64,000 nt of DNA, from the NCBI GenBank assembly GCA_040754655.1, contig JBFMCE010000004.1:1740-65739 (forward strand), given 5' to 3'. Both the position numbers and the translations under genes were made by a program. The notes under the pieces are model-generated. The model had not been told where the DNA came from and did not search any database. It saw only the letters and a list, made by a program, of their open reading frames with translations. The stretch is from Bdellovibrionota bacterium (GTDB lineage: Bacteria; Bdellovibrionota; UBA1018; UBA923). This document shows positions 2,073 to 32,184 of the stretch, one piece after another (within the stretch, counting starts at the first letter, position 1; every line of letters begins with the position of its first letter).

Positions 2073-3487
2073 GTACACCAGAGATCATCCTAAGAAATGC
2101 GGCCCAGCTGGTCAAAGAACCGCTGATCGATCCTAAGAAGAAGTATGCCGACGTCAATAATGATGTCTGCGCGCCACTCGAGCGACTTCCTAACTTCGCG
2201 TGGTGGAAGGCGTTCGGCATCGCAAACGTTTGCCTATTGATCGGCCTTACGGCAATGGGTCTCACCATCGGAACCGGTATCGGGCAGTGGGGTCTCAATC
2301 GAACCGTAGGCTGGGCCTTTGACATCACCAACTTCGTCTTCTGGATCGGCATCGGCCACGCAGGTACGTTGATTTCAGCGATCCTGTTCTTGTTCCGCCA
2401 AAAATGGCGAACGTCGATCAACCGTTCGGCCGAGGCGATGACGATTTTCGCGGTGATGACGGCGGGTTTGTTCCCGTTGATCCACGTGGGGCGTCAGTGG
2501 ATGGCTTTTTGGCTCTTTCCTTATCCCAATCAACGCGATCTCTGGGTGAACTTTCGAAGCCCACTGCTCTGGGATGTTTTCGCGGTTTCAACGTACTTTA
2601 CCATCTCTTTGGTGTTTTGGTACATCGGTCTCATCCCAGACATCGCTTCGGTGAGAGACCGTGCGAAAAATAAAATTCGAAAACTCATCTACGGCATTCT
2701 CTCATTGGGTTGGACGGGTTCTGCGCGCGCTTGGAACCATTACGAAACCGCGTACATGTTGCTGGCAGGTCTCTCAACACCGCTTGTTCTCTCGGTGCAC
2801 AGCATCGTTTCTTTTGACTTCGCAGTGTCGATTTTGCCAGGTTGGCATACGACGATCTTTCCACCTTACTTCGTCGCTGGCGCTATTTTTTCTGGCTTCG
2901 CGATGGTTGTGACCTTGCTCGTGATTGCACGAAAGGTTTTGGGGCTCGAGTCTTACATTCGCCTGGTTCATCTTGAAAACATGAACAAGATCATCATGCT
3001 CACGGGCATGATGGTGGGTTATGCGTATGCCACGGAGTTTTTCACTGCTTGGTACAGCGCAAACGAATACGAGCGTTTTGTTTTCATCAACCGGGCTTTC
3101 GGGCCATACGGTTGGTCGTACTGGACCATGGTCACCTGCAACGTGCTCATCCCGCAGCTGTTCTGGTTTAAGAAGATACGCAGGTCTCTCTCGATCATGT
3201 TTGTGATTTCGATCTTCGTGAATATCGGGATGTGGTTTGAGCGCTTTGTGATCATCGTGACCTCATTGCACCGGGACTTCCTGCCCTCGTCGTGGTCGAT
3301 GTACAAACCGTCGATCGTGGAAGTGGGCATTTTGATCGGAAGCTTTGGGATGTTCTTTACTCTGTTCTTGCTGTTCTGCAGGGTCTTGCCGACCATTGCG
3401 ATGTCAGAGGTGAAGGGCGTTATGCATGGCGAACAGCATGGCACAGGTGAAGCAGGTCATCACGCAAGCGGAGGCGCACATGGCTAA
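2069..3487 (+). CDS. actC: Alternative Complex III subunit ActC (NrfD/PsrC-like polytopic quinol-interacting membrane subunit)
   Basis: A 472-aa highly hydrophobic protein with many predicted TM helices and a NrfD-like sequence ([31 protein letters not shown]). It has an ATGA overlap with actB and sits in the canonical position of the act cluster. Confidence 0.85.
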
Positions 3488-3998
3488 GAAACCTCTAAAG
3501 GGTGTCGTAGGAATTTTTAGCGAGCCCGAGTCGCTAAAGAGAGCTGCCGCGCAGATTCGCGACAAGCAGGTGAAGGAATTCGATGCGTTCACTCCTTTTC
3601 CGGTGCATGGCATCGAAGAAGCCATGGGCTTGAAGAGATCTTTCTTGCCTTGGGTCACGTTTATCTCGGGCTTAATAGGTTGTGCGGCAGGGCTTGGGCT
3701 TCAGATTTGGACTTCGGCTGTGGATTGGCCCTTGAATGTCGGCGGCAAACCCTTTGTTTCGCTGCCTGCGTTCATTCCGATCACGTTTGAATGCACGGTT
3801 TTGTTTGCGGGGCTTGCAACGGCTGGCGCATTGATCGCTGTTTGCAAGCTGCCCAATATGAACCCTGACATTCTTCATCCCGACCTGACAAATGACAAGT
3901 TCGCCTTGTTTGTGTCGGCGGAAGATCCTAGTTACCGCGAAACAGAATTTAGCGATCTTTTAAAAAGAGCGGGAGCAATCGATGTTCGCACTCTTTAA
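3480..3998 (+). CDS. actD: Alternative Complex III subunit ActD (DUF3341-type membrane subunit)
   Basis: I chose the in-frame ATG at 3480 ([13 protein letters not shown]...), which overlaps the actC stop by 8 nt. The protein has a soluble N-terminal part followed by two hydrophobic helices. Its position between actC and the monoheme actE supports the call. Confidence 0.7.
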
Positions 3999-4035
3999 GC
4001 ATAAAGCTCGATCACCCTTTGGTCATGGATTCACA

Positions 4036-4611
4036 ATGAGAAACACCACTGTTGTTTTGCTTTCGGCTGTGGCGCTCACGGGTTGCTTCGGCGACAATAA
4101 AAAGCCTACCTACGAGTTCATGCCGCATATGATGGACACGCCTGCAGTAAAGGCGCAGCGCCCTGGCCCCTTTGGGGAAGGAATGAGGGTGCCCCCTCAA
4201 GGGACGATTTCCCAAGAGGCTGAACCTTATCGTTTTGCTAAAGATCCCGAAGGCGCGGGAAGATCTTTGAAAAACCCATTGCCGCGCACGATGGTGAACC
4301 TTGAAATGGGCAAAAAGCTCTACAATACCTATTGCATCGTCTGCCACGGTGACAAAGGAGAGGGCAATGGCTCGATCGTCCCGAAGTTTCCGCAGCCGCC
4401 TTCATTGCATTCCGACAAAGTGCGTGACTGGACCGATGGAAGGCTCTTCCACGTGATCACGATGGGGCAAAACCTCATGCCGAGTTATGCCTCGCAGGCA
4501 GAGCCCAAGGAACGCTGGGCGATCATTCATTATGTTCGAGTTTTGCAACGTGCTTTGAATCCTTCGCAGTCTGATCTCTCAGCACACGAAAAGGCAAAGA
4601 CGGGGAAATAG
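4036..4611 (+). CDS. actE: Alternative Complex III subunit ActE (monoheme cytochrome c lipoprotein)
   Basis: The internal start at 4036 gives a lipoprotein-type signal (MRNTTVVLLSAVALTGC). There is a single CxxCH heme motif (CIVCHG). The alternative start at 3982 cannot be excluded. Confidence 0.75.
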   Translation: MRNTTVVLLSAVALTGCFGDNKKPTYEFMPHMMDTPAVKAQRPGPFGEGMRVPPQGTISQEAEPYRFAKDPEGAGRSLKNPLPRTMVNLEMGKKLYNTYCIVCHGDKGEGNGSIVPKFPQPPSLHSDKVRDWTDGRLFHVITMGQNLMPSYASQAEPKERWAIIHYVRVLQRALNPSQSDLSAHEKAKTGK

Positions 4612-4615
4612 AACT

Positions 4616-5818
4616 ATGACACATCACACACACACACTTGAAGTTAAGAACCCCGGTCCATACCGTTTCTCGTCGACGCTCAAGATGGTGTTCGGAATCT
4701 GCGCGCTCGTAGGGATCGCAAGCATCGTGGCGGGACTTGCAACGGCTCCGGAACGAGCCTGGCCAAATTTCCTGCTGAATTATTTTTATTTCCTGCTGTT
4801 GGGTCTTTCGGGTGCTTTTTTCGTTGCCTTGCAACACATCACTAATGCTTATTGGAGCGTTACGGTGAGGCGTCTTGCTGAAGGATTAACCGCTTACCTG
4901 CCGGTGGCGTTCGTTCTTGGGTTGGTTTTGTTGTTTGGGCTTCACAACCTTTATGAATGGACCCACCATGACGTGGTGGTGAAAGACCGCATTTTAAGCC
5001 AGAAGATGGGATACCTGAATACCACCTTCTTCGCGATTCGCTTGGTTGGCGCTTTTGCGATCTGGATTTTGTTTACGCTGCTGATGAGGCGAAATTCTTT
5101 GGCGCAAGACAGCTCGGGCGATCACAAGTTCACGCTTTCGAATATCAAGCTTTCCGCCGTGTTTTTGCCTCTGTTCGGGCTCTCTTTCACCATGATGAGT
5201 TTTGATCTTGTGATGTCGCTAGAGCCGCATTGGTTCAGCACGATCTTTGGCATCTATTGCTTCTCAGGGTTGTTCTTCAGCGGTCTTTCCCTTTTATCGC
5301 TGCTGGTGATTTACGGCAGGAAACAGGGCGTGTTCGCCAATAACCTCGTCAACGAGAACCATTTGCATGACATCGGGAAGCTGATGTTCGGATTCACGGT
5401 GTTTTGGGCTTATATCGGGTTCTCTCAACTGATGTTGCAGTGGTATGCCAACCTTCCCGAAGAGACGTCGTATTACATCCGCCGTTTTCACGGGGGCTGG
5501 TGGCCTTTCTCGATCTTCTTGTTCGTGATCCACTTCGTGGTGCCTTTTTTCGGGCTGCTGCCGCGGGAGGCGAAACGTTGCGAGTCGTATCTGAAAGCTA
5601 TGGCCGTCTTGATGCTCGTTGCGCAGTGGTTTGATGCTTATTATCTCGTGATGCCTGTTTTCTTTAAAGAAGGGCCGGTGTTTGGCTGGATTGAAGTGGG
5701 CACCTTCTTAGGATTCTTGGGTGTTTTCGCGATTACTGTGGGAAGGTTTTTAGAGAAAGTACCCGCGGTACCCGTGAAAGATCCAAGGCTTGTACAGTGC
5801 GTTGCGCATTCTCAGTAA
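4616..5818 (+). CDS. actF: Alternative Complex III subunit ActF (second NrfD-like membrane subunit)
   Basis: A 400-aa polytopic membrane protein immediately after actE with a 4-nt spacer. This is the order typical of act clusters. Confidence 0.75.
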   Translation: MTHHTHTLEVKNPGPYRFSSTLKMVFGICALVGIASIVAGLATAPERAWPNFLLNYFYFLLLGLSGAFFVALQHITNAYWSVTVRRLAEGLTAYLPVAFVLGLVLLFGLHNLYEWTHHDVVVKDRILSQKMGYLNTTFFAIRLVGAFAIWILFTLLMRRNSLAQDSSGDHKFTLSNIKLSAVFLPLFGLSFTMMSFDLVMSLEPHWFSTIFGIYCFSGLFFSGLSLLSLLVIYGRKQGVFANNLVNENHLHDIGKLMFGFTVFWAYIGFSQLMLQWYANLPEETSYYIRRFHGGWWPFSIFLFVIHFVVPFFGLLPREAKRCESYLKAMAVLMLVAQWFDAYYLVMPVFFKEGPVFGWIEVGTFLGFLGVFAITVGRFLEKVPAVPVKDPRLVQCVAHSQ

Positions 5819-5834
5819 GAGGTTTTGTTAAGAA

Positions 5835-6770
5835 ATGAGTTCGTCCTCAAGCGTTCAAACATCAATGGCTGCCTGGACAGGATCTGGTGCTCTCGCACGC
5901 AAGTGGCTTTTCTGGGCTGCAGCCGCGCTGACAGCTCTTGTTTTTGCCCTGATCTCATTGGGCGGACTTGTTCGAAATGAAGGGGCGGGTCTTGCGTGCC
6001 CAGATTGGCCTCTGTGTTTTGGGCAGGTCGTTCCTCCAATGGATTACCAAGTTTTCTTGGAGTGGTTCCATCGTTTGATCGCTGGAACCGTGAGCGTATT
6101 TTTACTGGCTCTTTCGACCGTGGTGTTTTTCATCCCGCAATTGAGGTCAAAGGTTTGGAAGTTTTGCGCATTTGCTTTGAGCTTGTTGGCCGCTCAAGTG
6201 GTGCTTGGGGGAATGACGGTTTTGGGCTTGCTTGATCCGAAATGGGTCTCTTCTCATCTTGCGGTGGGGTTGGCTTTTTTTGGGACGATTTTGTGGCTGA
6301 CCTTGCGCCTGGGTGAAGGGGCAGAGCAAAAGACGCGCCCTCTTGTTTCTACTCGTCTTCGCAATTTCGGTGTTTTCACGACTACTGTTTTGTATGCGCA
6401 GATCTTGCTTGGCGGCCTGGTGAGTTCGAACTTCGCGGGTTTGGCTTGCGCTGGGTTCCCGACCTGCAATGGAGAGTGGCTACCCCCGTTGGAAGGCCTA
6501 GTTGGTTTTCAAGTGGTGCACCGTATTGGCGCGCTGGTGACCACGCTTCTTGTTTTAGGGTTTTCGTTTGCTTTGTGGAGAGCCGCAACCTCTGCGAGAA
6601 CGAAGTTTGTTTCGATCGCACTACCGCTTTTGGTGGTGACGCAAGTGATCTTGGGGGCCAGCAGTGTGCTTTTCGGGTTGCCGCTTTTGGTGAGTGTGGC
6701 CCATTTATCCACTGCAACGGCACTACTAGGGGCTTTATTGGTGAGTTTATATGAACTTAAGTACGCTTAG
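5835..6770 (+). CDS. ctaA: Heme A synthase (COX15/CtaA family)
   Basis: An eight-TM-like profile with two paired-Cys loops (CPDWPLC and CAGFPTC) and conserved His residues (WFHRL, VHRIGA), as expected for CtaA. Confidence 0.8.
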   Translation: MSSSSSVQTSMAAWTGSGALARKWLFWAAAALTALVFALISLGGLVRNEGAGLACPDWPLCFGQVVPPMDYQVFLEWFHRLIAGTVSVFLLALSTVVFFIPQLRSKVWKFCAFALSLLAAQVVLGGMTVLGLLDPKWVSSHLAVGLAFFGTILWLTLRLGEGAEQKTRPLVSTRLRNFGVFTTTVLYAQILLGGLVSSNFAGLACAGFPTCNGEWLPPLEGLVGFQVVHRIGALVTTLLVLGFSFALWRAATSARTKFVSIALPLLVVTQVILGASSVLFGLPLLVSVAHLSTATALLGALLVSLYELKYA

Positions 6771-7695
6771 AGCGACGGCGCAGACTGTTTCGCTCGAGGG
6801 ATCAGTCCCATCGAGTTCTATCTTCGCCAAGATCGCAGATTATGTTCAGCTGACAAAACCTCGCATTGTCTTGTTGTTTGCTTTGACGGGGCTTGCCGCG
6901 ATTGTCATGGAAGGCTCATTGCGAGCCGAGCCGTTGAAGCTTTGGGCGATCGTCTTAGGAATCGTCCTTACCGCAGGTTCAGCGAATGCGTTGAACCAAT
7001 ACATCGATCGCGACATTGACGCCGTGATGGAGCGTACGCGGAAAAAACGACCGCTTCCGGCCGGACGATTGAGTCCGCAGAGCGCCCTATTTTTTGGGTT
7101 GGCTACAGGCACCATCGCAACGGCTCTTCTCTACGGCTTTGGTAACCTTCTTACTGCGGCACTCGGCGTGGGCACCATTTTGTTTTATGTGGGTATCTAT
7201 ACTCTTTGGCTCAAGAGGCGCACTCCGTACAATATTGTGATCGGTGGAGCTGCGGGCGCGACCGCGCCTCTAATCGGATGGGCTGCAGCAACTGGACATC
7301 TGTCAGTGGGTGCGCTGGTAATGTTTCTGATCGTTTTTGTTTGGACACCACCCCACTTCTGGGCTTTGGCTCTTTGCGTGAAAGAAGAGTACGCTCAAGT
7401 TTCGGTACCCATGCTCCCTGTCGTGGCTGGCGAAGAAGCCACGCGCAGGCAGATTTTGGCATACAGTGTTGCACTCATCCCTTTGACGCTTGTCTTGGGG
7501 CTCACGAAAGATTGCGGCTGGGTTTATATCGTTTCGGCTGCTCTGTTGGGCGCGGGATTTCTTTTTAAAGCTTGGAACGTGCTAAAGAAAAAAGACACCC
7601 AGTCTTCATGGCGACTCTTTGGGTACTCGATCGTGTATCTGCTCGCACTTTATACCGTGATGATCATCGACGCGTTGGTGGGGCTTAAACCATGA
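6751..7695 (+). CDS. ctaB: Protoheme IX farnesyltransferase (heme O synthase)
   Basis: UbiA-family motif NQYIDRDIDAVMERTRKKRPLP plus WTPPHFWALA. It overlaps ctaA by 20 nt and overlaps the next gene with ATGA. Confidence 0.9.
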   Translation: MNLSTLRATAQTVSLEGSVPSSSIFAKIADYVQLTKPRIVLLFALTGLAAIVMEGSLRAEPLKLWAIVLGIVLTAGSANALNQYIDRDIDAVMERTRKKRPLPAGRLSPQSALFFGLATGTIATALLYGFGNLLTAALGVGTILFYVGIYTLWLKRRTPYNIVIGGAAGATAPLIGWAAATGHLSVGALVMFLIVFVWTPPHFWALALCVKEEYAQVSVPMLPVVAGEEATRRQILAYSVALIPLTLVLGLTKDCGWVYIVSAALLGAGFLFKAWNVLKKKDTQSSWRLFGYSIVYLLALYTVMIIDALVGLKP

Positions 7696-20647: not shown

Positions 20648-20662
20648 GCGATGGAGGTTTTT

Positions 20663-21118
20663 ATGAAAGTAAAAGAATGTATGACGGATCAACCCGTCTT
20701 GTGCGGTTCTCTCGACAGTTTGTTTGAGTGCTCAAAGTTGATGTATCAAAAAAACGTCGGATATTTGCTCGTTATAGATGGCGACGACAAGTTCGTGGGC
20801 GTGATCACTGACCGTGATATCGTCTGCGGTTGCATAGCCCAGGGGTTTGATCCGCAAAGTACGCCGGTGACTGAGGTGATGGAACGCCGTTTTTTCACGC
20901 TCAAACCCGATCAAACGATAGATGAGGCTCTTCGCGTGATGAGTGAAAATGGGATTCGAAGGCTCCCGGTAATCGATGAGAACAGGTGCGTAGGTATTTT
21001 GTCTGTCGATGACCTCATCGTGAAAGAGGCGTGTGAGACCAAAGACATCGCGCCTATCTTCAAGCGACAGCTCTCTGAGCCGAGGTTGACACGGTCGACG
21101 GTCGGCGAGGCTGCCTGA
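20663..21118 (+). CDS. CBS domain pair protein
   Basis: GGAGG lies 6 nt upstream of the ATG at 20663. There are two CBS repeats (VGVITDRDIV ... GIRRLPVIDENRCVGILSVDDL). Confidence 0.8.
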   Translation: MKVKECMTDQPVLCGSLDSLFECSKLMYQKNVGYLLVIDGDDKFVGVITDRDIVCGCIAQGFDPQSTPVTEVMERRFFTLKPDQTIDEALRVMSENGIRRLPVIDENRCVGILSVDDLIVKEACETKDIAPIFKRQLSEPRLTRSTVGEAA

Positions 21119-21201: not shown

Positions 21202-21984
21202 ATGCGAACAACCATTGTTTTCCTTACTGCCACCGTTTTGATCGGTGGTTTCGTTGCGCCATTCCATCTTCGGGCGCAACAAGCGGGCCCGGAGTATCTT
21301 GAGCTTTTGGGAATCGCCCAGCGGGCCTTGCGAGAGAAAAAGCTTCGAAACGTCGTCACGTCGGGCTCGGTTCAACCCGCAAATAGAGTCTCATCGATTT
21401 GGGCGAAACACCGTTTCTATCGAAAGGGTGAAACTTGGGTTGTCGATTTTACGTCTCGCGAAAGCGCGATCATGCGCAAGAGCAATGCGCCGGAAGATCA
21501 GGTTCTCGCGAAACGCAGGCCCTCTGCTTTTATATTCAGCGTCATCGGCGTGGAACCGAACAACAAGATGGCGCGAGTCGAAGTGAGGCAGAAGCTTGAA
21601 AAAGACGATGTGCCTGTCGATCCAAGGATCGATCACCTTGTCTTGCACATCAATGAAATCTTCGTCGTCGTAAAACAAGAAACGCATTTTCGCGATGGCG
21701 CCCCAGCCCATACCGTCGAATCCTCAAGCCTCTCAAACGTTTCAACCGGGTTTTCCGCTTATCCCGTTGATCTTCCGAACATCAACCTTGATGAGGGAAC
21801 GACGATAGCGGAGTTGCCCGAAGAACTTAGAGGAGAGGTTGATCCAAAGCAGGCGCTGGAGTTTCGTTCCACCGATCTCTACGGACGTTCGTTGTCGATG
21901 ATCTGGCGCGAAGGAGATGTTTGGCCTGTTTATGTGAAGAGTCCTACTGGAATCGCAGTACTGAGAACTGAGAGGAGAGACTAA
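21202..21984 (+). CDS. Secreted hypothetical protein, partner A1 of the transglutaminase-elicitor-like cassette
   Basis: Signal peptide (MRTTIVFLTATVLIGGFVAPFHLRAQQ). Its stop lies 1 nt before the next start. The C-terminal block ALEF..D.YGRSLSMIWREGDVWPVYVKSPTGIAVL is shared with the paralogue at 25074-25781. Confidence 0.7.
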   Translation: MRTTIVFLTATVLIGGFVAPFHLRAQQAGPEYLELLGIAQRALREKKLRNVVTSGSVQPANRVSSIWAKHRFYRKGETWVVDFTSRESAIMRKSNAPEDQVLAKRRPSAFIFSVIGVEPNNKMARVEVRQKLEKDDVPVDPRIDHLVLHINEIFVVVKQETHFRDGAPAHTVESSSLSNVSTGFSAYPVDLPNINLDEGTTIAELPEELRGEVDPKQALEFRSTDLYGRSLSMIWREGDVWPVYVKSPTGIAVLRTERRD

Positions 21985-21985
21985 A

Positions 21986-23161
21986 ATGTTCAGCAGAATT
22001 CTCTTCGTATTGTTGGCGACGATTCTTGTCGGGGTTGGATGCGGCAAGAAAAAAGACGAAAAGGCCGGTGAAAACGGCACGCAACCCGCGATGAGCCTTG
22101 ATCTTCAGAGCGGGTCAAATCTTTATGATCTCATGGCGCGTCATTCGAGGGCTGTGGTGAGCCCTCAACCGTGGGCAGGATACTGGTGGCCTTACGTAGG
22201 GCAAGGCATCGCGTCGACTTGGCGAGATGGCAGTGGGATGAGTCCTGCGGATAAATACGACGCCGCCTATAAAATCTTCCTTGAATCGCGGGGAGCAAAC
22301 ACCGCTGAATACAAATCAATGGCGGCCTGGGAAAGAACCAGGCACGGCCCGGGGCTAGCCAACGTCGAGTCATGGTGGGGACACTGCAACGGATGGGCGG
22401 CGGCCTCGTTGATGGTTCCTGAGCCGACGGCGCCCAAGGTCATCAACGGGATTCGTTTTGAGGTCAGAGATCTCAAAGCGATCTTGTCTGAGTCTTGGAT
22501 GGAGTTTTCAGGCGATTTCGTTGGCAATAGGGTGAACGCGCCGGGCGATACGGGAAGCGCCGCTTACTGGGACATTGCCCCAGCTCAGTTTCATTTGCTC
22601 TTGGCTCACAAGGTGGGAAGGCAAAATCGCGGTTTGATCCTCGACCGCCATACTGGTCATGAAATCTGGAACCAACCGCTTGTTGCTTACAAGTTCGAAC
22701 CTATCACTCCGGATGATTACTTGGGTGCTCACCCCTCGTTTCCCGAGATCCACCGAGTCAATGTCACCGCGAAGATCTGGTGGGCAAACGACAACGTCGC
22801 TCCGGACATGACTACAGGCGCCTTCAATATGGAAGAGAGTGAGTTCACTTCAAACCAATATTTCCCACGGCGTGATGCTCCCTTTCATGGGAGAAAACTC
22901 CGTTATGAATTGTGGCTCGATGCTCCCGCCGAGTTTGATGAGGCCGGCAATCTGATCCGCTCAGGCGATATCCTCATCACCGAGGAAGACGGCAGATACG
23001 TCGGGGGAGTTTGGAAAAACGGTTCGCATGGATCGATCAATGCTCATCCTGACTATATGTGGATGCCTCACGGGATACAGCATAGCAGCGGCTACAAGAA
23101 TCCTCGCCTCGATGATGCTTGGGTAAGGGAATATATTGGTACTCCGCATCATGGGAGCTGA
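21986..23161 (+). CDS. Lipoprotein resembling the GP42 / 'transglutaminase elicitor' family (putative Cys-dependent transglutaminase or protease), copy 1
   Basis: Lipobox LVGVGC. Conserved blocks are WAGYWWPY, WWGHCNGWAAAS, LILDRHTGHEIWNQPLVAYKFEP (compare Phytophthora Pep-13, VWNQPVRGFKVYE), HRVNVT, LRYELWLD and HPDYMWMP. The coding status is confident. The family assignment is from memory. Confidence 0.6.
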   Translation: MFSRILFVLLATILVGVGCGKKKDEKAGENGTQPAMSLDLQSGSNLYDLMARHSRAVVSPQPWAGYWWPYVGQGIASTWRDGSGMSPADKYDAAYKIFLESRGANTAEYKSMAAWERTRHGPGLANVESWWGHCNGWAAASLMVPEPTAPKVINGIRFEVRDLKAILSESWMEFSGDFVGNRVNAPGDTGSAAYWDIAPAQFHLLLAHKVGRQNRGLILDRHTGHEIWNQPLVAYKFEPITPDDYLGAHPSFPEIHRVNVTAKIWWANDNVAPDMTTGAFNMEESEFTSNQYFPRRDAPFHGRKLRYELWLDAPAEFDEAGNLIRSGDILITEEDGRYVGGVWKNGSHGSINAHPDYMWMPHGIQHSSGYKNPRLDDAWVREYIGTPHHGS

Positions 23162-23180
23162 AGAGGACTGCTAAAAAAAA

Positions 23181-23285
23181 TAGGGTAACGGATTTCGGTT
23201 CACGACAAACGGGTTCGGTTGACGGTTGACGGATTTCGGAGTTGGTTACCGGTCCCGTGGGATTTGGTCACCGTCGACCGCCCCA
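23181..23285. repeat. Dispersed intergenic repeat family, locus 2
   Basis: GGTAACGGATTTCGGTT, GGGTTCGGTTGACGGTTGACGG and GATTTCGGAGTTGGTTACCGGTC. The last matches 52367-52388 (GATTTCGGAGTCGGTACCGTC). Confidence 0.55.
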
Positions 23286-23345
23286 AGCCCTAGTTCATGA
23301 GTTTCCATTCCCACTTCAACTTGCGTTGGGTATCATCGAGATACG

Positions 23346-24935
23346 ATGATGCTACGGGCGAGAGTTCTTGCGGGGATAACGTTTTCAGCTTTGGTGACTT
23401 CGTTTTCCTTTCCTCCCTACCAGTTTGGGTTGCTCATGCTTGTAGGCTTGGTGCCTTTGTTCGTTGCGTTGGAAAGCGCGCAGACTTTAAGGCAAGCCGC
23501 GTTTCGCGGGTGGTTTTACGGGTTTGTCTCTAATGTTCTGGTGTGCAACTGGTTGGGAAGCGCGATTGAGACCTTTTCAAGCCTTCCCTGGCTTGCAAGC
23601 CAACTAGGAATCGTTCTTGTTTCGATCTTAGAGCAGTCTTCATGGGCAGTGTTCGCGGCGGCTAGGTTTTATGTCAATAAACGTCTCGGCATGCGGCCCC
23701 TGTTTTGGAGCGCGGCTGCCATCATGGCGCTAGATTCGATTTGGCCGAAACTTTTTCCAAACACGATGGGAAACGCTTTCTACAATGTTTCTTGGCTTGC
23801 GCAGGCCGCGGATCTCACTGGGGTCTGGGGTTTGACGGCGGTGATCGTCATTTCAAACGAAGCCTTGGCTCTGGGGTGGCTTTGGTTTGCCAAAGGAAAC
23901 CGCTTCGGTTTGAAGCGCATTGAAATCTTAAAGCATGCGTCGGTTGCGGTTCTTGTTCTCGTGGCAGTCAGTTCGTATGGCATTTACAGGAAAAAACAAA
24001 TCCAGGCCGTTCTTCTGCGGAAACCCGACAAGTCTTTTCCAGTCGCGATAGTGCAACCCAATATCAACGCGGTCGCGCAAATCCGCGGTCAGACCAACAA
24101 AGAGCTGGCGCGAAGCAAGGTCTTGACCGAGATGATTCGGCTGACCAATGCGGCTCTTGTTTTCAATCCGAAACTCGTCGTTTGGCCTGAAACGGCTTAT
24201 CCAGATACCTTTCATGGTGAGTCTCTTACCGAAAGCATCTTGGTGACTCAAACCCTTGACCGGTACCTTCGTGAGAACCAGGTCTCTCTTCTTTTCGGCG
24301 CGCGTGATCAGGTGGGCCATCGCAGGTTCAATGCGTTCATCTTGGCAAGTCCTGATCGGGGTGGCAGTCAACTCATTCGGCAAGTTTATCACAAGACGCA
24401 CCTTCTTGAGTTCGCGGAGCATGTGCCATTTGCCGACTCGTCGCCAGCTCTCGCAGAAACAGCGCGAAGTCTTGGCGCGAGCACGTTCAGCTACGGGGAA
24501 GGCCCCAAGAACCTGAGCCTTGATGGGATAAAGCTCGGGGTGATGATTTGCCTTGAGGGATTGTTTCCCGATTTCGTGAGAAGAACTGTCGCGGGCGGCG
24601 CCGAGATCCTCTTCAATGCCACAAATGACGCTTGGTTCGGCGACACGAGAGAGCCCTCCCTGCATCTTTATCTCACGGCGTTTCGAAGCATCGAGACACG
24701 GCGACCGTTGGTGCGCGCGACCAATACAGGCTATTCCACTGTGATCGGGATAGATGGGCAGCTTCGAATGAAGAGCAAACTTTTCACCGAAGATGTTATT
24801 TTTGACGACGTTCCGCTTTACAGCGGGATCAAAAGCCCATTTGTCTTTTGGGGGAACACACTTCTTCACCTCTCAGCTCTTTGGATGCTCTGGCCTTGGG
24901 CGACCACTTGGCTGCGACGGCGTAAAGCCTGTTGA
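23346..24935 (+). CDS. lnt: Apolipoprotein N-acyltransferase
   Basis: An N-terminal polytopic membrane domain plus a CN-hydrolase domain with VVWPETAYPD, YHKTHLLEFAEHVPF, the catalytic-Cys region VMICLEG, NDAWFG and VRATNTG. Confidence 0.9.
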   Translation: MMLRARVLAGITFSALVTSFSFPPYQFGLLMLVGLVPLFVALESAQTLRQAAFRGWFYGFVSNVLVCNWLGSAIETFSSLPWLASQLGIVLVSILEQSSWAVFAAARFYVNKRLGMRPLFWSAAAIMALDSIWPKLFPNTMGNAFYNVSWLAQAADLTGVWGLTAVIVISNEALALGWLWFAKGNRFGLKRIEILKHASVAVLVLVAVSSYGIYRKKQIQAVLLRKPDKSFPVAIVQPNINAVAQIRGQTNKELARSKVLTEMIRLTNAALVFNPKLVVWPETAYPDTFHGESLTESILVTQTLDRYLRENQVSLLFGARDQVGHRRFNAFILASPDRGGSQLIRQVYHKTHLLEFAEHVPFADSSPALAETARSLGASTFSYGEGPKNLSLDGIKLGVMICLEGLFPDFVRRTVAGGAEILFNATNDAWFGDTREPSLHLYLTAFRSIETRRPLVRATNTGYSTVIGIDGQLRMKSKLFTEDVIFDDVPLYSGIKSPFVFWGNTLLHLSALWMLWPWATTWLRRRKAC

Positions 24936-25073
24936 AGCGGCATTAGCGAAAATCACCTGCGCAGCCGATAGCTGGTTTCTTGCCGGTTGCGCGCTCTGAG
25001 CGCTTGTTATGCCAGTCGTCTTGAGTCTTCCATCTTGAGGCATAAGCTGGGTTTTCAAAGAGAGGGTATATTT

Positions 25074-25781
25074 ATGCCGCCCCGCCTGGTCTTGGGTTTT
25101 CTTTCGGTTCTCGGTTTTTTTTCGATGTTCTCGTTAAAGGCGCAAGAAATGAGCGACCCTCAAGTTTTGAAGGACTTAGAGGTAGCGCAGCGCCATGTTC
25201 TTCAGAAAAAGTCGAAGTTGGCGCGAATCTCAGAGCGTGGTTTGAGAGTCAATGAAGCAATCGCTCTGGATCACGTGCGTTACCAAGAGGGGCAGTCTTG
25301 GCGGCTTGCCGTGGCCTTACCCAAAGTCGATATGGCGAGGAAAGAAGCTTCCCGGTTTGAACCAGCCCCCTCTCACAGCATCAAACTTTATCAGTTCAAT
25401 GTTCTCTCATCTGATCGAGAGCGCGCCAAGGTCGAAGTGAGCGTTCCGGACCGAGATGCTTTTCTGGTCTCGATCGACTCGAAACTCAAGGTGACTCCAG
25501 AGAAGTCAGCTGCGATGCTGGGGTTTGATCTGTTCCCGGTCAGCATTCCGGCGCATTTTGGTGATGAGCTCGCAAGAATCGAAAACAAACCCAAGCTTCC
25601 CGGAATTTTTGATTCTCTACGAGACAAGATCGTTGAAATAGATGAAGGCGCAGCGCTTGAATTCAATGTTGAAGATTCTCTCGGAAGGCCCGTTCATGTC
25701 ATTTGGCAAGAAAACCATCCTTGGCCCGTCTATATGAGCGCACCCACAGGTGTAGCCGTGCTCTTAAAGGAGGATCGGTAA
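25074..25781 (+). CDS. Secreted hypothetical protein, partner A2 (paralogue of 21202-21984)
   Basis: The ATG at 25074 gives a signal peptide (MPPRLVLGFLSVLGFFSMFSLKAQE). The C-terminal block ALEFNVEDSLGRPVHVIWQENHPWPVYMSAPTGVAVL matches A1. Its stop abuts the next start (TAAATG). Confidence 0.7.
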   Translation: MPPRLVLGFLSVLGFFSMFSLKAQEMSDPQVLKDLEVAQRHVLQKKSKLARISERGLRVNEAIALDHVRYQEGQSWRLAVALPKVDMARKEASRFEPAPSHSIKLYQFNVLSSDRERAKVEVSVPDRDAFLVSIDSKLKVTPEKSAAMLGFDLFPVSIPAHFGDELARIENKPKLPGIFDSLRDKIVEIDEGAALEFNVEDSLGRPVHVIWQENHPWPVYMSAPTGVAVLLKEDR

Positions 25782-26879
25782 ATGAAGCGAATTTATCTTT
25801 CATTGGCGATTCTTCTTACTTTGATGATGGCGTCTGGTTGCGGCGACGATGACAACGAACAGACGGGCAACGGCGATTCCGAGGCCGGCGTGCCGTACCC
25901 CGACGTGCCCGATGGCATGACTGCAGGGAACGCGGCTTCAAATAAAAACTTTGCTACTCTGCAGCGCAGGGTCTCATCGGCATCGGTGAGCCCTGCTCCT
26001 TGGGCAGGTTATTGGTGGCCGTACTCAACCAATGGCATCGCAGGTGCGGCTGCAAAGCATGATCTTGCGCGCGGAACTGGAGGCTCACAGTCGTGGGAGG
26101 TCTCAAATCACGGACAGGGTCTTGCGGGAGTTGCGGATTGGTGGGGGCATTGCAATGGCTGGGCAGCTGCGGCTTTGCTGATGCCTGAACCCAAGGGGCC
26201 GAAAACAATAAATGGCGTTGAGTTCAGCATCAGCGATCGCAAGGCGCTGCTCTCAGAGGTTTTCATGGAAGTCACCGGCGATTTCCTCGGCAATCGCGTG
26301 AACAACCCCGGTGATACTTCAAGCGGGGCTTTTCGCGATATCGTGCCGGCGCAATTCTATTTGATGCTCACGAATGTCATTGGTCTTCAGCGACGCGCGT
26401 TCATCATGGACCGTTTCACGGGTGTCGAAGTATGGAACCATCCTGTGGTCGCTTACGCGAATTCCCCGGTTCGGAGCGAAGACTACCTGGGTGTTGACCC
26501 TGAATTTCCGCAAGTGCACCGCGTGAATGTGACAACCCAAATTTGGTGGGTCGAAGACAACGTGGACCCCAACATCGTCACACCCGCTTTTGACCCTTCG
26601 AATCTTGGCTCGGCGTTTAAAAGTCGCACGTTAAGGTATGAGTTGTGGCTTGATGCAGCGCCTCAATTTGATGGCGCTGGAAACCTCGCGGCGGCAGGTG
26701 ATGTTATTCTGGCCAATGACGCGGGCCGCGCTGTCGGAGGAAGCTGGAAAAACGGGGCATTGCCTCTGGTCAATTCTTATCCTGACTATATCTGGATTCC
26801 CACGGGAGCGGCGCGTTCCTCCGGGCACAAAAACCCCCGCATTGATGACGCCTGGATTCGTCAGAATCTCGGTGGTTGA
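25782..26879 (+). CDS. Lipoprotein resembling the GP42 / 'transglutaminase elicitor' family, copy 2
   Basis: Lipobox MMASGC. It has the same conserved blocks as copy 1 (WAGYWWPY, WWGHCNGWAAAA, IMDRFTGVEVWNHPVVAY, HRVNVT, LRYELWLD, YPDYIWIP). Confidence 0.6.
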   Translation: MKRIYLSLAILLTLMMASGCGDDDNEQTGNGDSEAGVPYPDVPDGMTAGNAASNKNFATLQRRVSSASVSPAPWAGYWWPYSTNGIAGAAAKHDLARGTGGSQSWEVSNHGQGLAGVADWWGHCNGWAAAALLMPEPKGPKTINGVEFSISDRKALLSEVFMEVTGDFLGNRVNNPGDTSSGAFRDIVPAQFYLMLTNVIGLQRRAFIMDRFTGVEVWNHPVVAYANSPVRSEDYLGVDPEFPQVHRVNVTTQIWWVEDNVDPNIVTPAFDPSNLGSAFKSRTLRYELWLDAAPQFDGAGNLAAAGDVILANDAGRAVGGSWKNGALPLVNSYPDYIWIPTGAARSSGHKNPRIDDAWIRQNLGG

Positions 26880-26983: not shown

Positions 26984-27619
26984 ATGTTCAAAACAATGCT
27001 ATTGGCTCTGCTCTTCGGGATTCCCGTTTCTTCTTTGGCGCTGAATTCGCGTCAGCTTGCTGCGGAAGACTCTCTGGGGCGGTTTCGCAACACTTATTAT
27101 TATGTTGTCCGTGAGCAAGACTACGAGCATCTACCCAAAAACGATGTCCTGCTCGCACCTGAGGGAGAAGTGCTTGCGCGAGTGAGCAAGGCTTTTCGCG
27201 AGGCGCTGGATATCGAGGGCACAGGACGGCTGATTGATGGGCGATTGGTGAATTTCGCGCGGCTAAAGGCAGGTCGCATCCGGTATATCGTGACGACTTC
27301 ACCTTTTGGTTTGGGCGTGGGGAATTGCGAGCTTCGTCCGTTTAGGACGGTCGCAGTCGATCCCAAAACCATCCCGTTGGGCGCAACGGTGCGCATCGCC
27401 GAAACCGTAGGAATGGTTCTGCCGAACGGCGAGATTCACGACGGCATTTGGCATGCGGAAGATCGTGGAGGAGCGATTCGCGGTGATCGTATCGATCTTT
27501 TCGTCGGAGAAGGGGATCAAGGCAGCGTCCTCAAGTCGGTGGGCATCAAGACGCTCAAACCCTTGACCGTTTTTCTTATAGAGAACCCCCGGGCATCCTC
27601 ATGCGTGAACAAACGTTGA
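26984..27619 (+). CDS. Secreted 3D-domain protein (MltA-like lytic transglycosylase C-terminal domain)
   Basis: Signal peptide plus a 3D-domain signature (AVDPKTIPLGATVRI ... EDRGGAIRGDRIDLFVG). Confidence 0.7.
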   Translation: MFKTMLLALLFGIPVSSLALNSRQLAAEDSLGRFRNTYYYVVREQDYEHLPKNDVLLAPEGEVLARVSKAFREALDIEGTGRLIDGRLVNFARLKAGRIRYIVTTSPFGLGVGNCELRPFRTVAVDPKTIPLGATVRIAETVGMVLPNGEIHDGIWHAEDRGGAIRGDRIDLFVGEGDQGSVLKSVGIKTLKPLTVFLIENPRASSCVNKR

Positions 27620-28323
27620 ACTCTTCGAACTCCCAAGATCGGGATCAGAGCCATGCGCGGGCGGGCTTCTTGCCCGCTTCGGTTCGAATCGCTAAAGCGA
27701 GGGCGCGAGAATTTAGCGAGATCCGTAGAATTTGCTGTGAAACGGGAAACGCCGGAGCACCGATTGCGAAAGAACGCTGGGACTTCTTTGGCGATTTGTG
27801 GATCGGTCCGTATGAAAAACTCTTGCCGCAGTGGACTTACGTGGCCAGCGTAGAAGATCAGATTCTGGGGTACCTCACGGGATGCCCGTCTACCGCGCAG
27901 TTCGAGTCAAGAAAACGCCTAAAAATCTTTCCTCTGCTTTGGATGGGGATATTGCGGCGAAGTTACCGGAAAACTTCCGATACCCGGCGCTTTTTAAAGC
28001 GCTCGCTGGGCCTTTCGAAATCACCGGAGCGCTGCTTTTCGGGAGGATTCTTGAAGATGCTCTATGTCCGGTATCCAGCGCATCTGCACATCAATATTGA
28101 TTCCAGAGTGAGAGGGCGAAATTTAGGTAGATCGCTCGTGGAAGGGTTTCTCCGCGACTTGAAACGCGAGGAAGTTTCTGGCGTGCATGTTTTTTGCGGG
28201 GATCAGGCTCGGGGGTTTTATCGCTCATTGGGCTTTCAGGAATTGAAGCGGATCTCTTACCGTACCGATTCACGCGCGGGTGCGACGCCAGTTTACGCGA
28301 TGGGACGGTTGTTGAGGGCGTAA
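27601..28323 (+). CDS. GNAT family N-acetyltransferase
   Basis: Acetyl-CoA binding motif region VRGRNLGRSLVEGFL and a C-terminal FYRSLGFQEL. It overlaps the preceding gene by 19 nt. Confidence 0.65.
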   Translation: MREQTLNSSNSQDRDQSHARAGFLPASVRIAKARAREFSEIRRICCETGNAGAPIAKERWDFFGDLWIGPYEKLLPQWTYVASVEDQILGYLTGCPSTAQFESRKRLKIFPLLWMGILRRSYRKTSDTRRFLKRSLGLSKSPERCFSGGFLKMLYVRYPAHLHINIDSRVRGRNLGRSLVEGFLRDLKREEVSGVHVFCGDQARGFYRSLGFQELKRISYRTDSRAGATPVYAMGRLLRA

Positions 28324-28353: not shown

Positions 28354-28761
28354 TCATTCCGGCCGTAAAACCAGCGGATAGCGGATAGCCCGGGATTTAC
28401 GATCTACAGGCGCGGGAAAAGTGATTTTCTTCAGTCTCTTCAAGACGCAGCTGTAAAGATCAGGATCGGGAGCGCTCATCTGATCAATCTGGGCCTTGAT
28501 GACTTTTCCTTCAGGATCGATTTGAAATTTCAATTGGATGTTCTGGGTGGTGCCCGTCTGAATGCTAACGCTGTCACGGGCGCACGACACGAACTTTTCA
28601 GCGTTGCCCTGCATAGTTCTTCCTACCGGACCTTCGGTAGGAGATTCGCCCATCGAGGCGTCGGGCACTTCCCCAATGCCGGCGCAGCCCAAAAGAGCCT
28701 GGCTTGCGCCGACAAGAGTCAATAAAAGAAAGATCAAAAGCAACGGATTGCGGGCAGGCAT
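28354..28761 (-). CDS. Lipoprotein with a TonB-C / AgmX-PglI-like C-terminal domain
   Basis: The internal ATG gives a lipoprotein signal (MPARNPLLLIFLLLTLVGASQALLGC). The C-terminal pattern LKFQIDPEGKVIKAQI...LYSCVLKRLKKITFPAP resembles the TonB_C-like fold. Confidence 0.45.
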   Translation of the reverse strand: MPARNPLLLIFLLLTLVGASQALLGCAGIGEVPDASMGESPTEGPVGRTMQGNAEKFVSCARDSVSIQTGTTQNIQLKFQIDPEGKVIKAQIDQMSAPDPDLYSCVLKRLKKITFPAPVDRKSRAIRYPLVLRPE

Positions 28762-28837
28762 GCAAATAAAAGAGGTTTGACGGGACGTCATGAACTGATC
28801 TTACCATTACCATTTGCTTGCTTGAAGCATTAAGCAT

Positions 28838-29260: not shown

Positions 29261-29335
29261 GTCGCCTGTAACGCATCGTCAATTGGCCAGGCGCACGGGG
29301 AATAGGGTTTGCACAAGCACGGGAAGGAGGCTTTT

Positions 29336-29848
29336 ATGGTCCCAGAAAATAAACTTCCCGAAAACCCAGAAAACCGTCAGCAAGACCAGAGCTCGTCAAG
29401 AGGGGCTGAATCCCAAGGTAAAAGTAAAAGACCAAGGGGACTTGCTGCCGCTGATCCTGAGACGCGGCGAGCCGTGGCAAGAAAAGGCGGCGAAGCCGTT
29501 TCAAGAAATAGAAAACACATGGCCGAGATTGGTCGAAAGGGCGGTGAAGCCGTTTCGCAAGACCGCAGGCATATGGCCGAGATTGGTCGAAAGGGCGGTG
29601 AGGCTGTAAGCCAAAATCGCGAGCACATGGCTGAAATCGGTCGTAAAGGCGGCGAAGCGCGCAGTGGGCACGGACACCCGGAGGATCAGGAAACGTCAGA
29701 TGAAAGAAGCCCTGGTTCAGTCCATCCTATCCGTCAACAACAACAGCAAGGAGAATTGAGTTCAGACGAGACAATGCAAAATCCGCAGGGCGAAGCAGGA
29801 GTAGGCTCACCCAGCGAGTTTCAAAAGAAGACTGCGGCCGAAGGTTAA
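29336..29848 (+). CDS. KGG-repeat general stress protein (YciG/GsiB-like)
   Basis: GGAGG lies 6 nt upstream of the ATG at 29336. There are four KGG motifs (RKGGEAVS), three of them in near-perfect 18-aa tandem repeats HMAEIGRKGGEAVSQxRx. Confidence 0.75.
   Translation: MVPENKLPENPENRQQDQSSSRGAESQGKSKRPRGLAAADPETRRAVARKGGEAVSRNRKHMAEIGRKGGEAVSQDRRHMAEIGRKGGEAVSQNREHMAEIGRKGGEARSGHGHPEDQETSDERSPGSVHPIRQQQQQGELSSDETMQNPQGEAGVGSPSEFQKKTAAEG
29462..29662 (+). repeat. In-frame 54-bp tandem repeat (one degenerate and three well-conserved units) encoding the KGG motifs
   Basis: The nucleotide string atggccgagattggtcgaaagggcggtga recurs with a 54-nt period (starts near 29519, 29573, 29627). Confidence 0.85.
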
Positions 29849-32184
29849 CCCACCGCAGAGAGCTTGTTCGTGTTTGCAAGTTTCAGGTTCAGTGCTTCGA
29901 ATACGACGTCTTCAGCGGTTTCAATAAATTTAATTTGCAGTTTCGAAACTACATCTTGAGGGATTTGCTTCAAATCGGTCTGGTTGCGCTTGGGCAAGAG
30001 AATGGTTTTTATTCCTGCCCGATGCGCAGCCAGAACTTTTTCCTTTATCCCCCCGACTGGCAATACAGCTCCCCTAAGCGTGATCTCCCCGGTCATCGCA
30101 AGCTCTGGATTCAGGGTTTTCCCCGTGAGAAGGGAAGCGATCGCGGTAAGCATGGTAACCCCGGCCGAAGGGCCGTCCTTGGGTATTGCGCCCGCGGGCA
30201 CGTGCACGTGTAAATCGTTTTTATCGAACTTGAACTCAGGCGCAAGCCCCGGAGTGGCTGCCCTGATGTAACTCAATGCGATGTGGGCTGATTCCTTCAT
30301 TACCTCGCCCAATTGCCCGGTGAGAGTGACCTTCCCGCTGCCGGGCATGAGGCTTGCCTCGATGAACAAGATGTCGCCTCCATGCGGCGTCCACGCCAGC
30401 CCGGTGGCAACGCCTGGCCGCATGGTTCTTTCGGTGACTTCAGGCTGGAATTTCTCCGGACCCAGGATCTCAGGGACTTGCTCGGCGCCAAGCTGGATCG
30501 GAGGAATTTTCCCCATTACGATCGATTCGGCGCAGGCACGGAAGAGAGCTGCGATCTCACGTTGAAGTTCCCTGACGCCGGCTTCGCGAGTGTAACCGTG
30601 AACCAGCCTGAATATGGATTCATCCGGAAGCACGATGTCATTGGCTTTGAGTCCGTGCTCTTGAAGCTGCTTGGGGATCAAATACTGGCGCGCAATGTGA
30701 AGCTTTTCAATAGTCGTATAACCCGTGACCTCGATGATCTCCATGCGATCTCTCAAGGGTGCCGGGATCGTGTCGGCTACGTTCGCCGTCGCAATGAAGA
30801 AAACATTTGAGAGATCAAAAGGCACATCAAGGTAATGGTCGACGAAAGATTTGTTTTGCTCAGGGTCAAGAACCTCAAGCATCGCGCTTGCCGGGTCGCC
30901 TTGAAAGCTGATCCCGAGTTTGTCGATCTCATCGAGCATGAAGAGCGGGTTATTGGTGCCCACTCGTTTGATGCTCTGAATGATGCGTCCGGGCATCGCG
31001 CCGATGTAAGTTCTCCTGTGCCCTCGGATCTCGGCTTCATCTCTCACCCCGCCAAGGCTGGTTCGAATGAACCTTCGACCCAATGATCTCGCAATACTTT
31101 GGCCTAAACTTGTTTTCCCGACGCCGGGGGGGCCAATCAGACAGAGAATCGGCCCGTGGAGGTCGTTCTTTAGTTTTGCAACGGCAAGGTATTGCAAGAT
31201 CCTCTTTTTGACGTGTTCAAGCCCGTAGTGATCTTCATCCAGGATTTTCCGCGCCATCTTGAGATCAAGGTTGTCGTGAGTCGATTTCTTCCAGGGCATG
31301 TCGGCCAGCCATTCGAGATAAGTTCGAATCACGTGGTATTCGGCTGAAGCCGGGGGCAGCGACTCAAGCCTGTGCAATTCGTCGTTCACGACCTTTTGAA
31401 CATCCTCGGGCAGATTCGCCTGATCCAGGCGCCTTTCGATTTCGTCGCTGACTTGAGATCCTTCCTCACCCAGCTCTTCACGAATCGTTCGCATTTGCTC
31501 GCGCAGAAGGGCCTCGCGCTGAGCTTTATTGAGGCGCTCACTCATTTTTTCTTGGATGTCGCGCTGAAGGTTCAAGATCTCACGTTCCTTTTGCATGAGC
31601 GCTAAAAGGGTTTGCATTCGGCTCTCAACGATCACGTCTTCAAGCAGTTCTTGTTTTTGAGGGGTAGGCAGATTCAAATACGCCGAGCAGAGGTTCGTAA
31701 GGTAACCGGCGTCGTCAAGCTTCTCGACAAGCCTCGCTAAAGGCTCGCCGGCGCCGGGCAAGAGATCGAGGATCTCGCGCGCCATGGTTTTCAGGCTATT
31801 GAAAAGCGCCTGGGTTCTCACGGAGTCGGTTCCGTAGATGTCGGCGACATTCTCGCCACGCACGCTCAAAAAACCTTCATCTGAAATGTAATCTTCCACC
31901 CGGTAACGTGAAATGCCGGTGATGACGAGCTGGTAACCTCCGCTTTCGGTCTCGATCACGCTCTCAATTTTCGCGAGCGTTCCGATGCGGTACAAATCGC
32001 CCGTTTCTGGGTCACCATTGCTCATGATGCGTTGGGTGATCACGACCACCAGGTTCTCGTTCTCGCGCGCATGCAGTAGCGCGCGCACGCTGCGCGGCCG
32101 CCCGATCACTAGCGGCATCGACGCGCCTGGAAAGACGACTGCGTTTCGAATGGGGAGAACGGGAAGCGTGGTGGGTATCTTCAT
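29845..32184 (-). CDS. lon: ATP-dependent Lon protease (LonA)
   Basis: An N-terminal LON substrate-binding domain, Walker A GPPGVGKTSL, and the catalytic Ser region PKDGPSAGVTM with the downstream Lys (EKVLAAHRAG). Confidence 0.95.
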   Translation of the reverse strand: MKIPTTLPVLPIRNAVVFPGASMPLVIGRPRSVRALLHARENENLVVVITQRIMSNGDPETGDLYRIGTLAKIESVIETESGGYQLVITGISRYRVEDYISDEGFLSVRGENVADIYGTDSVRTQALFNSLKTMAREILDLLPGAGEPLARLVEKLDDAGYLTNLCSAYLNLPTPQKQELLEDVIVESRMQTLLALMQKEREILNLQRDIQEKMSERLNKAQREALLREQMRTIREELGEEGSQVSDEIERRLDQANLPEDVQKVVNDELHRLESLPPASAEYHVIRTYLEWLADMPWKKSTHDNLDLKMARKILDEDHYGLEHVKKRILQYLAVAKLKNDLHGPILCLIGPPGVGKTSLGQSIARSLGRRFIRTSLGGVRDEAEIRGHRRTYIGAMPGRIIQSIKRVGTNNPLFMLDEIDKLGISFQGDPASAMLEVLDPEQNKSFVDHYLDVPFDLSNVFFIATANVADTIPAPLRDRMEIIEVTGYTTIEKLHIARQYLIPKQLQEHGLKANDIVLPDESIFRLVHGYTREAGVRELQREIAALFRACAESIVMGKIPPIQLGAEQVPEILGPEKFQPEVTERTMRPGVATGLAWTPHGGDILFIEASLMPGSGKVTLTGQLGEVMKESAHIALSYIRAATPGLAPEFKFDKNDLHVHVPAGAIPKDGPSAGVTMLTAIASLLTGKTLNPELAMTGEITLRGAVLPVGGIKEKVLAAHRAGIKTILLPKRNQTDLKQIPQDVVSKLQIKFIETAEDVVFEALNLKLANTNKLSAVG

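Follow-up and report, generated by a model that had tools for sequence, protein, structure and literature searches.

In the genome of a member of the Bdellovibrionota (assembly GCA_040754655.1, contig JBFMCE010000004.1), a stretch of 64,000 nucleotides (nt), hereafter called the window, contains two gene pairs of the same architecture, A1/B1 and A2/B2, in which a gene for a secreted protein (A) runs directly into a gene for a predicted lipoprotein (B). A preliminary description of this DNA, made from the letters alone, had read the pairs as a duplicated, translationally coupled cassette and had suggested that they encode an enzyme and its obligate partner. The locus thus raises the question of what A does for B and whether the two belong together in other genomes. 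Based on a comparison of homologues, we propose that A and B probably form a two-subunit (heterodimeric), lipid-tethered envelope enzyme. Two findings lent strength to the idea of an enzyme with an obligate partner: A and B occur naturally as fusion proteins, and lipid anchors are distributed reciprocally between the two.

All four open reading frames (ORFs) were found at the coordinates claimed for them (Table 1). In both pairs, stop and start codons are separated by spacers of 1 and 0 nt, respectively, and a Shine-Dalgarno sequence lies inside the last codons of A, which bears out the stop-start coupling. The longest ORF of A2 begins earlier, at a TTG codon (24987); we preferred the ATG at 25074 because the signal peptide is then N-terminal and the match to the family hidden Markov model (HMM) begins there. 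A scan for promoters and terminators returned no signal exceeding shuffled expectation.

Both members of the cassette are paralogous between the copies, far past chance: B1 and B2 share 47% identity over 391 columns (E value, 2e-128), while A1 and A2 share 28% (E value, 4e-19). The sequence blocks cited earlier for B (WAGYWWPY, WWGHCNGWAAA, HRVNVT, and LRYELWLD) and for A (ALEF...IW.E..WPVY..PTG.AVL) are present in both copies. The preliminary description had also pointed to conservation still visible at the nucleotide level. Both strings that it quoted exist, at 22172 and 26001, but the claim is trivial, as codon-aligned nucleotide identity between the copies is 56% overall and the local match stems from Trp/Gly-rich motifs, not from residual DNA identity. 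Because of this low identity, because third positions agree at 45% of identical residues, and because B1 orthologues in other genomes (56 to 68% identical) are nearer to B1 than B2 is, we take the duplication to be old, in line with the earlier view that it has long been retained. These comparisons indicate that the window carries two old paralogous copies of one two-gene unit.

The pairing of A with B recurs across genomes. A pattern scan for B, using one genome per species, returned 346 B-like loci, of which the best 80 were examined with A and B HMMs. Almost all of these 80 came from Bdellovibrionota (Bacteriovoracaceae, Oligoflexia, Bdellovibrionia, and Halobacteriovorax), and the few remaining ones from metagenome-assembled genomes (MAGs) labelled Myxococcales or “Deltaproteobacteria.” The window itself comes from a deep uncultured lineage near Bdellovibrionota, as its Lon protein is at most 57% identical to that of any species-representative genome, with the best match in a Bdellovibrionales MAG. 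In total, 84 nonredundant B genes were counted among loci from species-representative genomes and the window, 82 of them with upstream sequence. An A gene lies directly upstream on the same strand of 67 of the 84, although four of these upstream matches are weak (E value above 1e-7); two B genes are part of an A-B fusion, 13 have no adjacent A, and two are truncated by a contig end. The obligate-looking, coupled pair is therefore not peculiar to the window: 67 of the 82 B genes with upstream sequence, plus the two fusions, have their A. The A stop codon precedes the codon for the B lipobox Cys by 41 to 86 nt in 38 of 40 pairs (counting the redundant loci L004 and L007), which leaves room for a signal peptide only and shows that the tight A-B junction is conserved.

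Approaching the pair from the A side gave the same picture. A peptide pattern specific to A found 16 loci, all of them B loci, and the three further A representatives for which DNA was available were each followed by B. Two distant B homologues outside the top 80, at about 30% identity, have an A-family gene 5 to 36 nt upstream. In a Planctomycetes MAG, the gene upstream of a B homologue matches the A profile weakly (E value, 0.006) and ends in the W...WP.Y motif of the family, so an upstream A may exist in this MAG as well. The distances between pairs of A proteins correlated with those between the cognate B proteins (r = 0.78; none of 999 permutations reached this value), with A evolving about twice as fast (mean identity of 23%, versus 46% for B). 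Of the 13 B genes without an adjacent A, nine form one clade in a neighbor-joining tree, seven of them from MAGs that also bear an A-B cassette, and one of the 13 comes second to another B in the A-B-B′ operon of L003. We propose that the A-B module is ancestral and chromosomal in Bdellovibrionota and that it duplicates as a unit.

Some of the surveyed loci depart from the usual layout. In L059, a solo A-family gene (3800 to 4579, minus strand; E value, 2e-64) with no B downstream directly adjoins a normal A-B cassette (5118 to 7287) and is oriented opposite to it. Three cassettes (L001, L009, and L018, on JBBRLF01 contigs) come from a MAG labelled “candidate division WWE3,” a label that looks wrong, through misbinning or mislabelling, since the gene set is otherwise of the Bdellovibrionota type. 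On an 856-kb metagenomic contig (L185), a second PF16683 protein of about 650 amino acids (aa) with faint to moderate ankyrin-repeat matches (1 to 1902, minus strand) is encoded divergently from an A-B pair (2078 to 4317); ankyrin proteins are self-protection partners of Bdellovibrio envelope enzymes. L102 encodes a 614-aa B homologue with a C-terminal proprotein-convertase P-domain (PF01483; 886 to 2730, plus strand), followed downstream by a 643-aa unannotated protein and then a PLD-like protein. Many other B homologues, including P0062, P0074, and P0087, have Pro/Thr-rich C-terminal tails.

Two further observations bear on whether A and B act as one unit. Three natural fusions were found (P0055, P0058, which is L010, and L011), each built of a signal peptide, A, a linker of 20 to 40 aa that takes the place of the B signal peptide, and mature B; the linker of P0058 is Pro-rich, and the closest relative of L011 in the tree, L018, is a split pair. 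The other observation concerns the lipid anchor, for which signal peptides and lipoboxes were called throughout from simple patterns only. Both window B proteins bear the lipoboxes ascribed to them (B1, ...ATILVGVG-C; B2, ...LTLMMASG-C), and in 39 pairs, including both window pairs, the lipobox is on B and the signal peptide of A is a plain one. The arrangement is reversed in a deep sister clade (L062 to L084), where, in all 16 complete pairs, A has a canonical lipobox (for example, MKSKKNLLLLLFAVAATS-C in L067 of Halobacteriovorax) and B a plain signal peptide. Five pairs have a lipobox on neither or both partners; an atypical VIEG-C is seen in one of them, L001. L018 and L037 have no lipobox on either partner. 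A physical complex would be predicted to have a single anchor, borne by one partner or the other, and together with the three fusions this pattern argues for such a complex of A and B. B proteins that are not lipoproteins still come paired with A, so lipoprotein status does not define B. Co-occurrence, coupling, fusion, and co-evolution of the two genes, which would be expected of a holoenzyme, were all observed.

The B proteins belong to a known enzyme family. In Pfam, B1 and B2 match PF16683 (“Transglutaminase elicitor”) with 100 bits (E value, 1.5e-28) and 90.4 bits, respectively, against a cut-off of 25, with the strong alignment confined to a central region, about positions 115 to 237 of the 361 in the profile. 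The family includes GP42 of Phytophthora sojae, a Ca2+-dependent transglutaminase, and its Vibrio homologues, and the sequence of the GP42 crystal structure (3TW5) was matched by B1 (E value, 1e-21) and by a profile of 48 B sequences (E value, 7e-27). Cys134 of B1, in WWGHCNGW, falls opposite the C290S position of 3TW5 (Cys290 of GP42) in the alignment and is invariant in the 48 homologues. The PWAGYWWP block is likewise conserved between GP42 and B, and the Pep-13 segment of GP42 (xWNQPxxx) is recognizable in B1 as IWNQPLVAYKFEP. The surroundings of the nucleophile differ. In B1, His133 precedes the catalytic Cys and is invariant in the 48 sequences, and Asn135 follows it and is kept in at least 90% of them. 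Another His (H120) and four Asp residues (D196, D220, D312, and D356) are invariant as well. The active site of GP42 has an unusual “CH” motif, with His directly after Cys (PMC10318531), and this motif is absent from B in the 48-sequence alignment, where Asn occupies that position. The term “GP42-like,” which the preliminary description had applied to B, therefore stands on the family matches and the retained Cys but needs a qualifier, as His-Cys-Asn replaces Cys-His. By this comparison, B is a divergent PF16683 member with a conserved nucleophile, in which the general base may be rearranged relative to GP42. Papain-fold enzymes also include proteases and amidases, so transglutaminase chemistry cannot simply be assumed, and we infer that B is a transglutaminase, a protease, or an amidase.

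The A proteins, in contrast, matched no described family. A1 and A2 had E values of 4e-72 and 2e-45 with the A-family HMM but no match in Pfam, NCBIfam, or PADLOC and nothing meaningful in PHROGs. Individual Pfam scans of 90 members found no named family, and neither single-sequence nor 90-member profile searches of PDB sequences gave a match. Word-indexed protein searches returned only 3 and 15 matches, and an exhaustive HMM search of 1.84 billion representative proteins was needed to show the size of the family: 150 A proteins at an E value of 1e-3 or below and 122 at 1e-10 or below, almost all of 220 to 300 aa. Every homologue that came with a source name was annotated “hypothetical protein.” P0169, P0232, and P0249 were discarded as spurious, being long repetitive proteins, some with VWA repeats. 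No long oomycete-type proteins appeared in the exhaustive search, and homology of A to the N-terminal precursor region of GP42 was thus undetected. Trp, Pro, Gly, Asp, and Arg are among the residues that are invariant or nearly so in the family, in which no conserved Gln or Lys is seen. A conserved C-terminal block spans residues 218 to 258 of A1. The profile evidence indicates that A is a real family of about 150 clusters and a member of no described one.

A structural model gave a lead on the fold of A. With an alignment of 90 sequences, AlphaFold2 modeled A1 with a predicted local distance difference test (pLDDT) score of 84.8 and a predicted template modeling score of 0.76, whereas a four-sequence alignment gave a useless model (pLDDT, 46). 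The A1 model consists of the signal peptide, a long helix (residues 30 to 55), and then about 10 beta strands in an antiparallel sheet. The top Foldseek matches in the PDB were proteins of the LolA/LolB fold, namely, LolA3 of Porphyromonas gingivalis (9TP6), a DUF1329 protein (4Z48), LolA, an ependymin-like carotenoprotein, and VioE. Their probabilities were 0.9 to 1.0, but the same matches are weak by template modeling (TM) score (0.30 to 0.48) and E value (3e-3 or worse), and a search against viral structures yielded nothing informative. No LolA-type Pfam family matched any of the 90 members at E values up to 1, and NCBIfam gave no LolA-type match for A. A LolA-like half-barrel is therefore a weak fold lead for A rather than a family membership.

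In the model that we favor, B would be the catalytic subunit, using the invariant Cys of WWGHCNGW, and A a dedicated noncatalytic subunit that binds the protein body of B. Translational coupling would provide the two in matched amounts; they would be exported separately via Sec and assembled in the periplasm. A single N-terminal lipid anchor would tether the complex to a membrane, carried by B in the window organism and by A in the deep sister clade. Most likely, A would act as a pro-domain in trans that aids the folding of B and/or gates its active site or the access of substrate. A resembles a pro-domain in its N-terminal position in the fusions, its faster evolution, and its absence from some B clades, but we hold this chaperone or gate role with less confidence than the two-subunit model as a whole.

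Several points weigh against the two-subunit model. The physical binding of A to B is something that we infer. The best structural matches of A are LolA-like, which hints at binding of a hydrophobic ligand rather than of a protein. The lipobox swap coincides with one deep split and is thus essentially a single evolutionary event. One clade of nine B genes and a few others have no A beside them, so that A cannot be essential to every B. Finally, His-Cys-Asn in place of the Cys-His of GP42 may mean that the chemistry of B differs from that of a transglutaminase.

The gene order and the fusions would also fit a transient role, in which A is a foldase or inhibitor (similar to Lif or to a cleaved pro-domain) that is then released or degraded, leaving B alone as the active enzyme. 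Such a helper could well be encoded upstream of B and coupled to it, precede B in fusions as a pro-domain would (with the Pro-rich linker of P0058), evolve faster than B, and be missing beside some B clades. However, no cleavage site is known, and A bears the only anchor of the pair in the deep clade, suggesting that it stays with B to localize it; we regard this reading as possible but unlikely. It is improbable, in our estimate, that A is an immunity protein which protects the predator by neutralizing B, a harmful effector, until B is delivered to the prey. The concentration of the module in predatory Bdellovibrionota, with several paralogous copies per genome, and the fast divergence of A together with B would suit this role. 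Bdellovibrio also offers a precedent in the DD-endopeptidase Bd3459 and its ankyrin immunity protein Bd3460, which resemble the A-B pair in that a predator envelope enzyme is encoded beside a dedicated binding protein. Yet the folds, gene order, and logic of the two pairs differ. A precedes B instead of following it, the three A-B fusions would be permanently inhibited effectors, one A stands before two divergent B genes in L003, and one B clade has no adjacent A. Neither known defense or effector-immunity families nor a mobile or island context was found for the pair, as PADLOC gave no match, PHROGs gave nothing meaningful, and the flanks in other loci are of the housekeeping type. The fusions and the shared anchoring point to a stable holoenzyme, not to toxin neutralization.

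The Foldseek result raised a further candidate role for A, that of a dedicated LolA-type carrier, which would take B, its acyl chains shielded, to the outer membrane or the cell surface. B1 and B2 are predicted lipoproteins, as such a carrier would require, and selective LolA paralogues are known in Bacteroidota (PMC11885536, PMC13103446). This role was rejected on comparative grounds, and we give it very little credence: B is not a lipoprotein in any of the 16 complete deep-clade pairs, where A itself has the lipobox; L018 and L037 lack a lipobox altogether; and the fusions leave B no lipid of its own. The low TM scores, the lack of any E value below 1e-3, and the lack of a LolA sequence signal in the 90 members add to this. 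Equally remote is the idea that A is a substrate of B, such as a cross-linked envelope protein, or that A and B are neighbors by synteny alone and do not work together; no direct evidence pointed to either. Genes for transglutaminases do at times lie close to those for their substrates, but the A family has no conserved Gln or Lys, and mere synteny would not lead one to expect fusions, reciprocal anchors, and a tight junction kept across a divergence to about 30% identity.

Compared with described systems, the pair appears to be new. GP42-type transglutaminases are oomycete cell-wall enzymes and plant immune elicitors. Unlike GP42, for which no counterpart of A has been described, B is predicted to be a lipoprotein or periplasmic protein of bacteria, and its partner is the product of a separate gene. 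Homologues of GP42 have been reported solely from oomycetes and Vibrio (review, PMC4915311), and our literature search on PF16683, “transglutaminase elicitor,” and Bdellovibrio transglutaminase found oomycete work only and no description of the pair, which agrees with the preliminary description, whose author knew of no such bacterial system.

The closest parallels in function are staphopain with staphostatin, a papain-fold protease with its beta-barrel inhibitor, and lipase with its foldase Lif. As in the A-B pair, an enzyme of a Cys or Ser hydrolase fold is cotranscribed with a small, dedicated, fast-evolving binding protein, and A, by prediction, is beta-rich as the staphostatins are. Pfam scans detected no sequence similarity of A to staphostatin or Lif. 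Whereas staphostatins are cytoplasmic and encoded downstream, A is encoded upstream and exported by its own signal peptide, and, in contrast to both systems, A can bear a lipid anchor and occurs as the N-terminal part of fusions with B. Neither system has the gene order of the A-B module or its shared anchor.

By these comparisons, what is new is a large, deeply diverged bacterial branch of PF16683 with a distinct active-site motif and an obligate-looking, unnamed, unannotated partner. Envelope-modifying enzymes are central to bacterial predation, and the module offers predatory-bacteria research a conserved, multicopy envelope system. The branch (346 loci in species-representative genomes) bears on the origin of GP42, the A family merits a name and a structure, and the reciprocal anchor pattern is a simple comparative test of physical association that could be used for other gene pairs. 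A more far-reaching reading, which we think rather doubtful, is that A:B represents an unrecognized class of lipid-anchored heterodimeric envelope enzyme typical of predatory Bdellovibrionota. A regulatory or targeting subunit of the LolA fold would have been recruited to a GP42-type His-Cys-Asn enzyme, the complex would remodel or cross-link envelope proteins or peptidoglycan of predator or prey, and the paralogous cassettes would differ in substrate specificity.

Table 1. Features of the two A-B cassettes in the window
Feature	Position	Strand	Remarks
A1, secreted partner protein, 260 aa	21202..21984	+	ORF; plain signal peptide (...HLRAQ|QAG)
Junction 1	21973..21988	+	GGAG Shine-Dalgarno (21973-79) within the end of A1, TAA (21982-84), 1 nt, B1 ATG (21986); direct sequence reading
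B1, predicted lipoprotein, 391 aa, PF16683 GP42-type papain-fold cysteine enzyme	21986..23161	+	Lipobox LVGVG-C19
lnt, apolipoprotein N-acyltransferase	23346..24935	+	PF20154 and PF00795; between the copies, context only
A2, secreted partner protein, 235 aa, divergent A1 paralogue	25074..25781	+	Without a stretch from the middle of A1
Junction 2	25767..25784	+	AGGAGG Shine-Dalgarno (~8 nt 5′) within the end of A2, TAA (25779-81), then directly B2 ATG (25782); direct sequence reading
B2, predicted lipoprotein, 365 aa, PF16683 paralogue of B1	25782..26879	+	Lipobox MMASG-C20

The genes around the cassettes form a local context. As the preliminary description had it, lnt lies between the copies and a 3D-domain protein and a GNAT follow, which Pfam confirmed (weakly for the GNAT); on the upstream side, Pfam found CBS-pair and Wzy_C/O-antigen-ligase-like proteins. 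That description had also implied a functional link between lnt and the cassette, which did not hold. Of the 85 sequences searched (L001 to L084 and the window), just two have lnt near the cassette, namely, the window and its closest, syntenic relative, L001 (Wzy-like, CBS, A, B, lnt), and we rejected lnt as a functional partner. Outside the window, none of these sequences has 3D-domain or GNAT genes beside the cassette. All three genes are thus local synteny and not part of the module, and Lnt presumably acylates B as it would any lipoprotein. Recurrent neighbors elsewhere are an RDD-family membrane protein (24 loci), a methyltransferase, a phosphoribosyltransferase, gpsA, and transporters, so the cassette context is core chromosome and housekeeping, not mobile, defense, or island DNA.

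Some neighboring genes are recorded here in their own right. The RDD-family gene (PF06271) of L013 (1661 to 2683, minus strand), one of the 24, lies divergently and directly upstream of A. A CBS-pair gene (window 20651 to 21118) directly precedes A1-B1, as one does the cassette in L001 and L002, while the distant cassette L183 has a CBS gene two genes downstream and, two genes before B, a gene for a YkuD_2 L,D-transpeptidase. Within lnt, a 313-aa antisense ORF (23928 to 24869, minus strand) is most likely a spurious shadow ORF. The 3D-domain gene (26984 to 27619) and the GNAT gene (27601 to 28323) overlap by 19 nt (27601 to 27619) if the ATG at 27601 is the true start. Immediately 3′ of the GNAT gene, a 145-aa ORF that runs in the other direction (28354 to 28791, minus strand) has a lipobox-like ...ALLG-C and no Pfam match. 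Farther downstream, a gene for a 179-aa protein (29309 to 29848, plus strand) contains four tandem units of about 15 aa (HMAEIGRKGGEAVSQ[ND]R) that match the Pfam KGG stress-induced repeat (PF10685), and it lies just upstream of a convergent Lon protease gene (29845 to 32184, minus strand).

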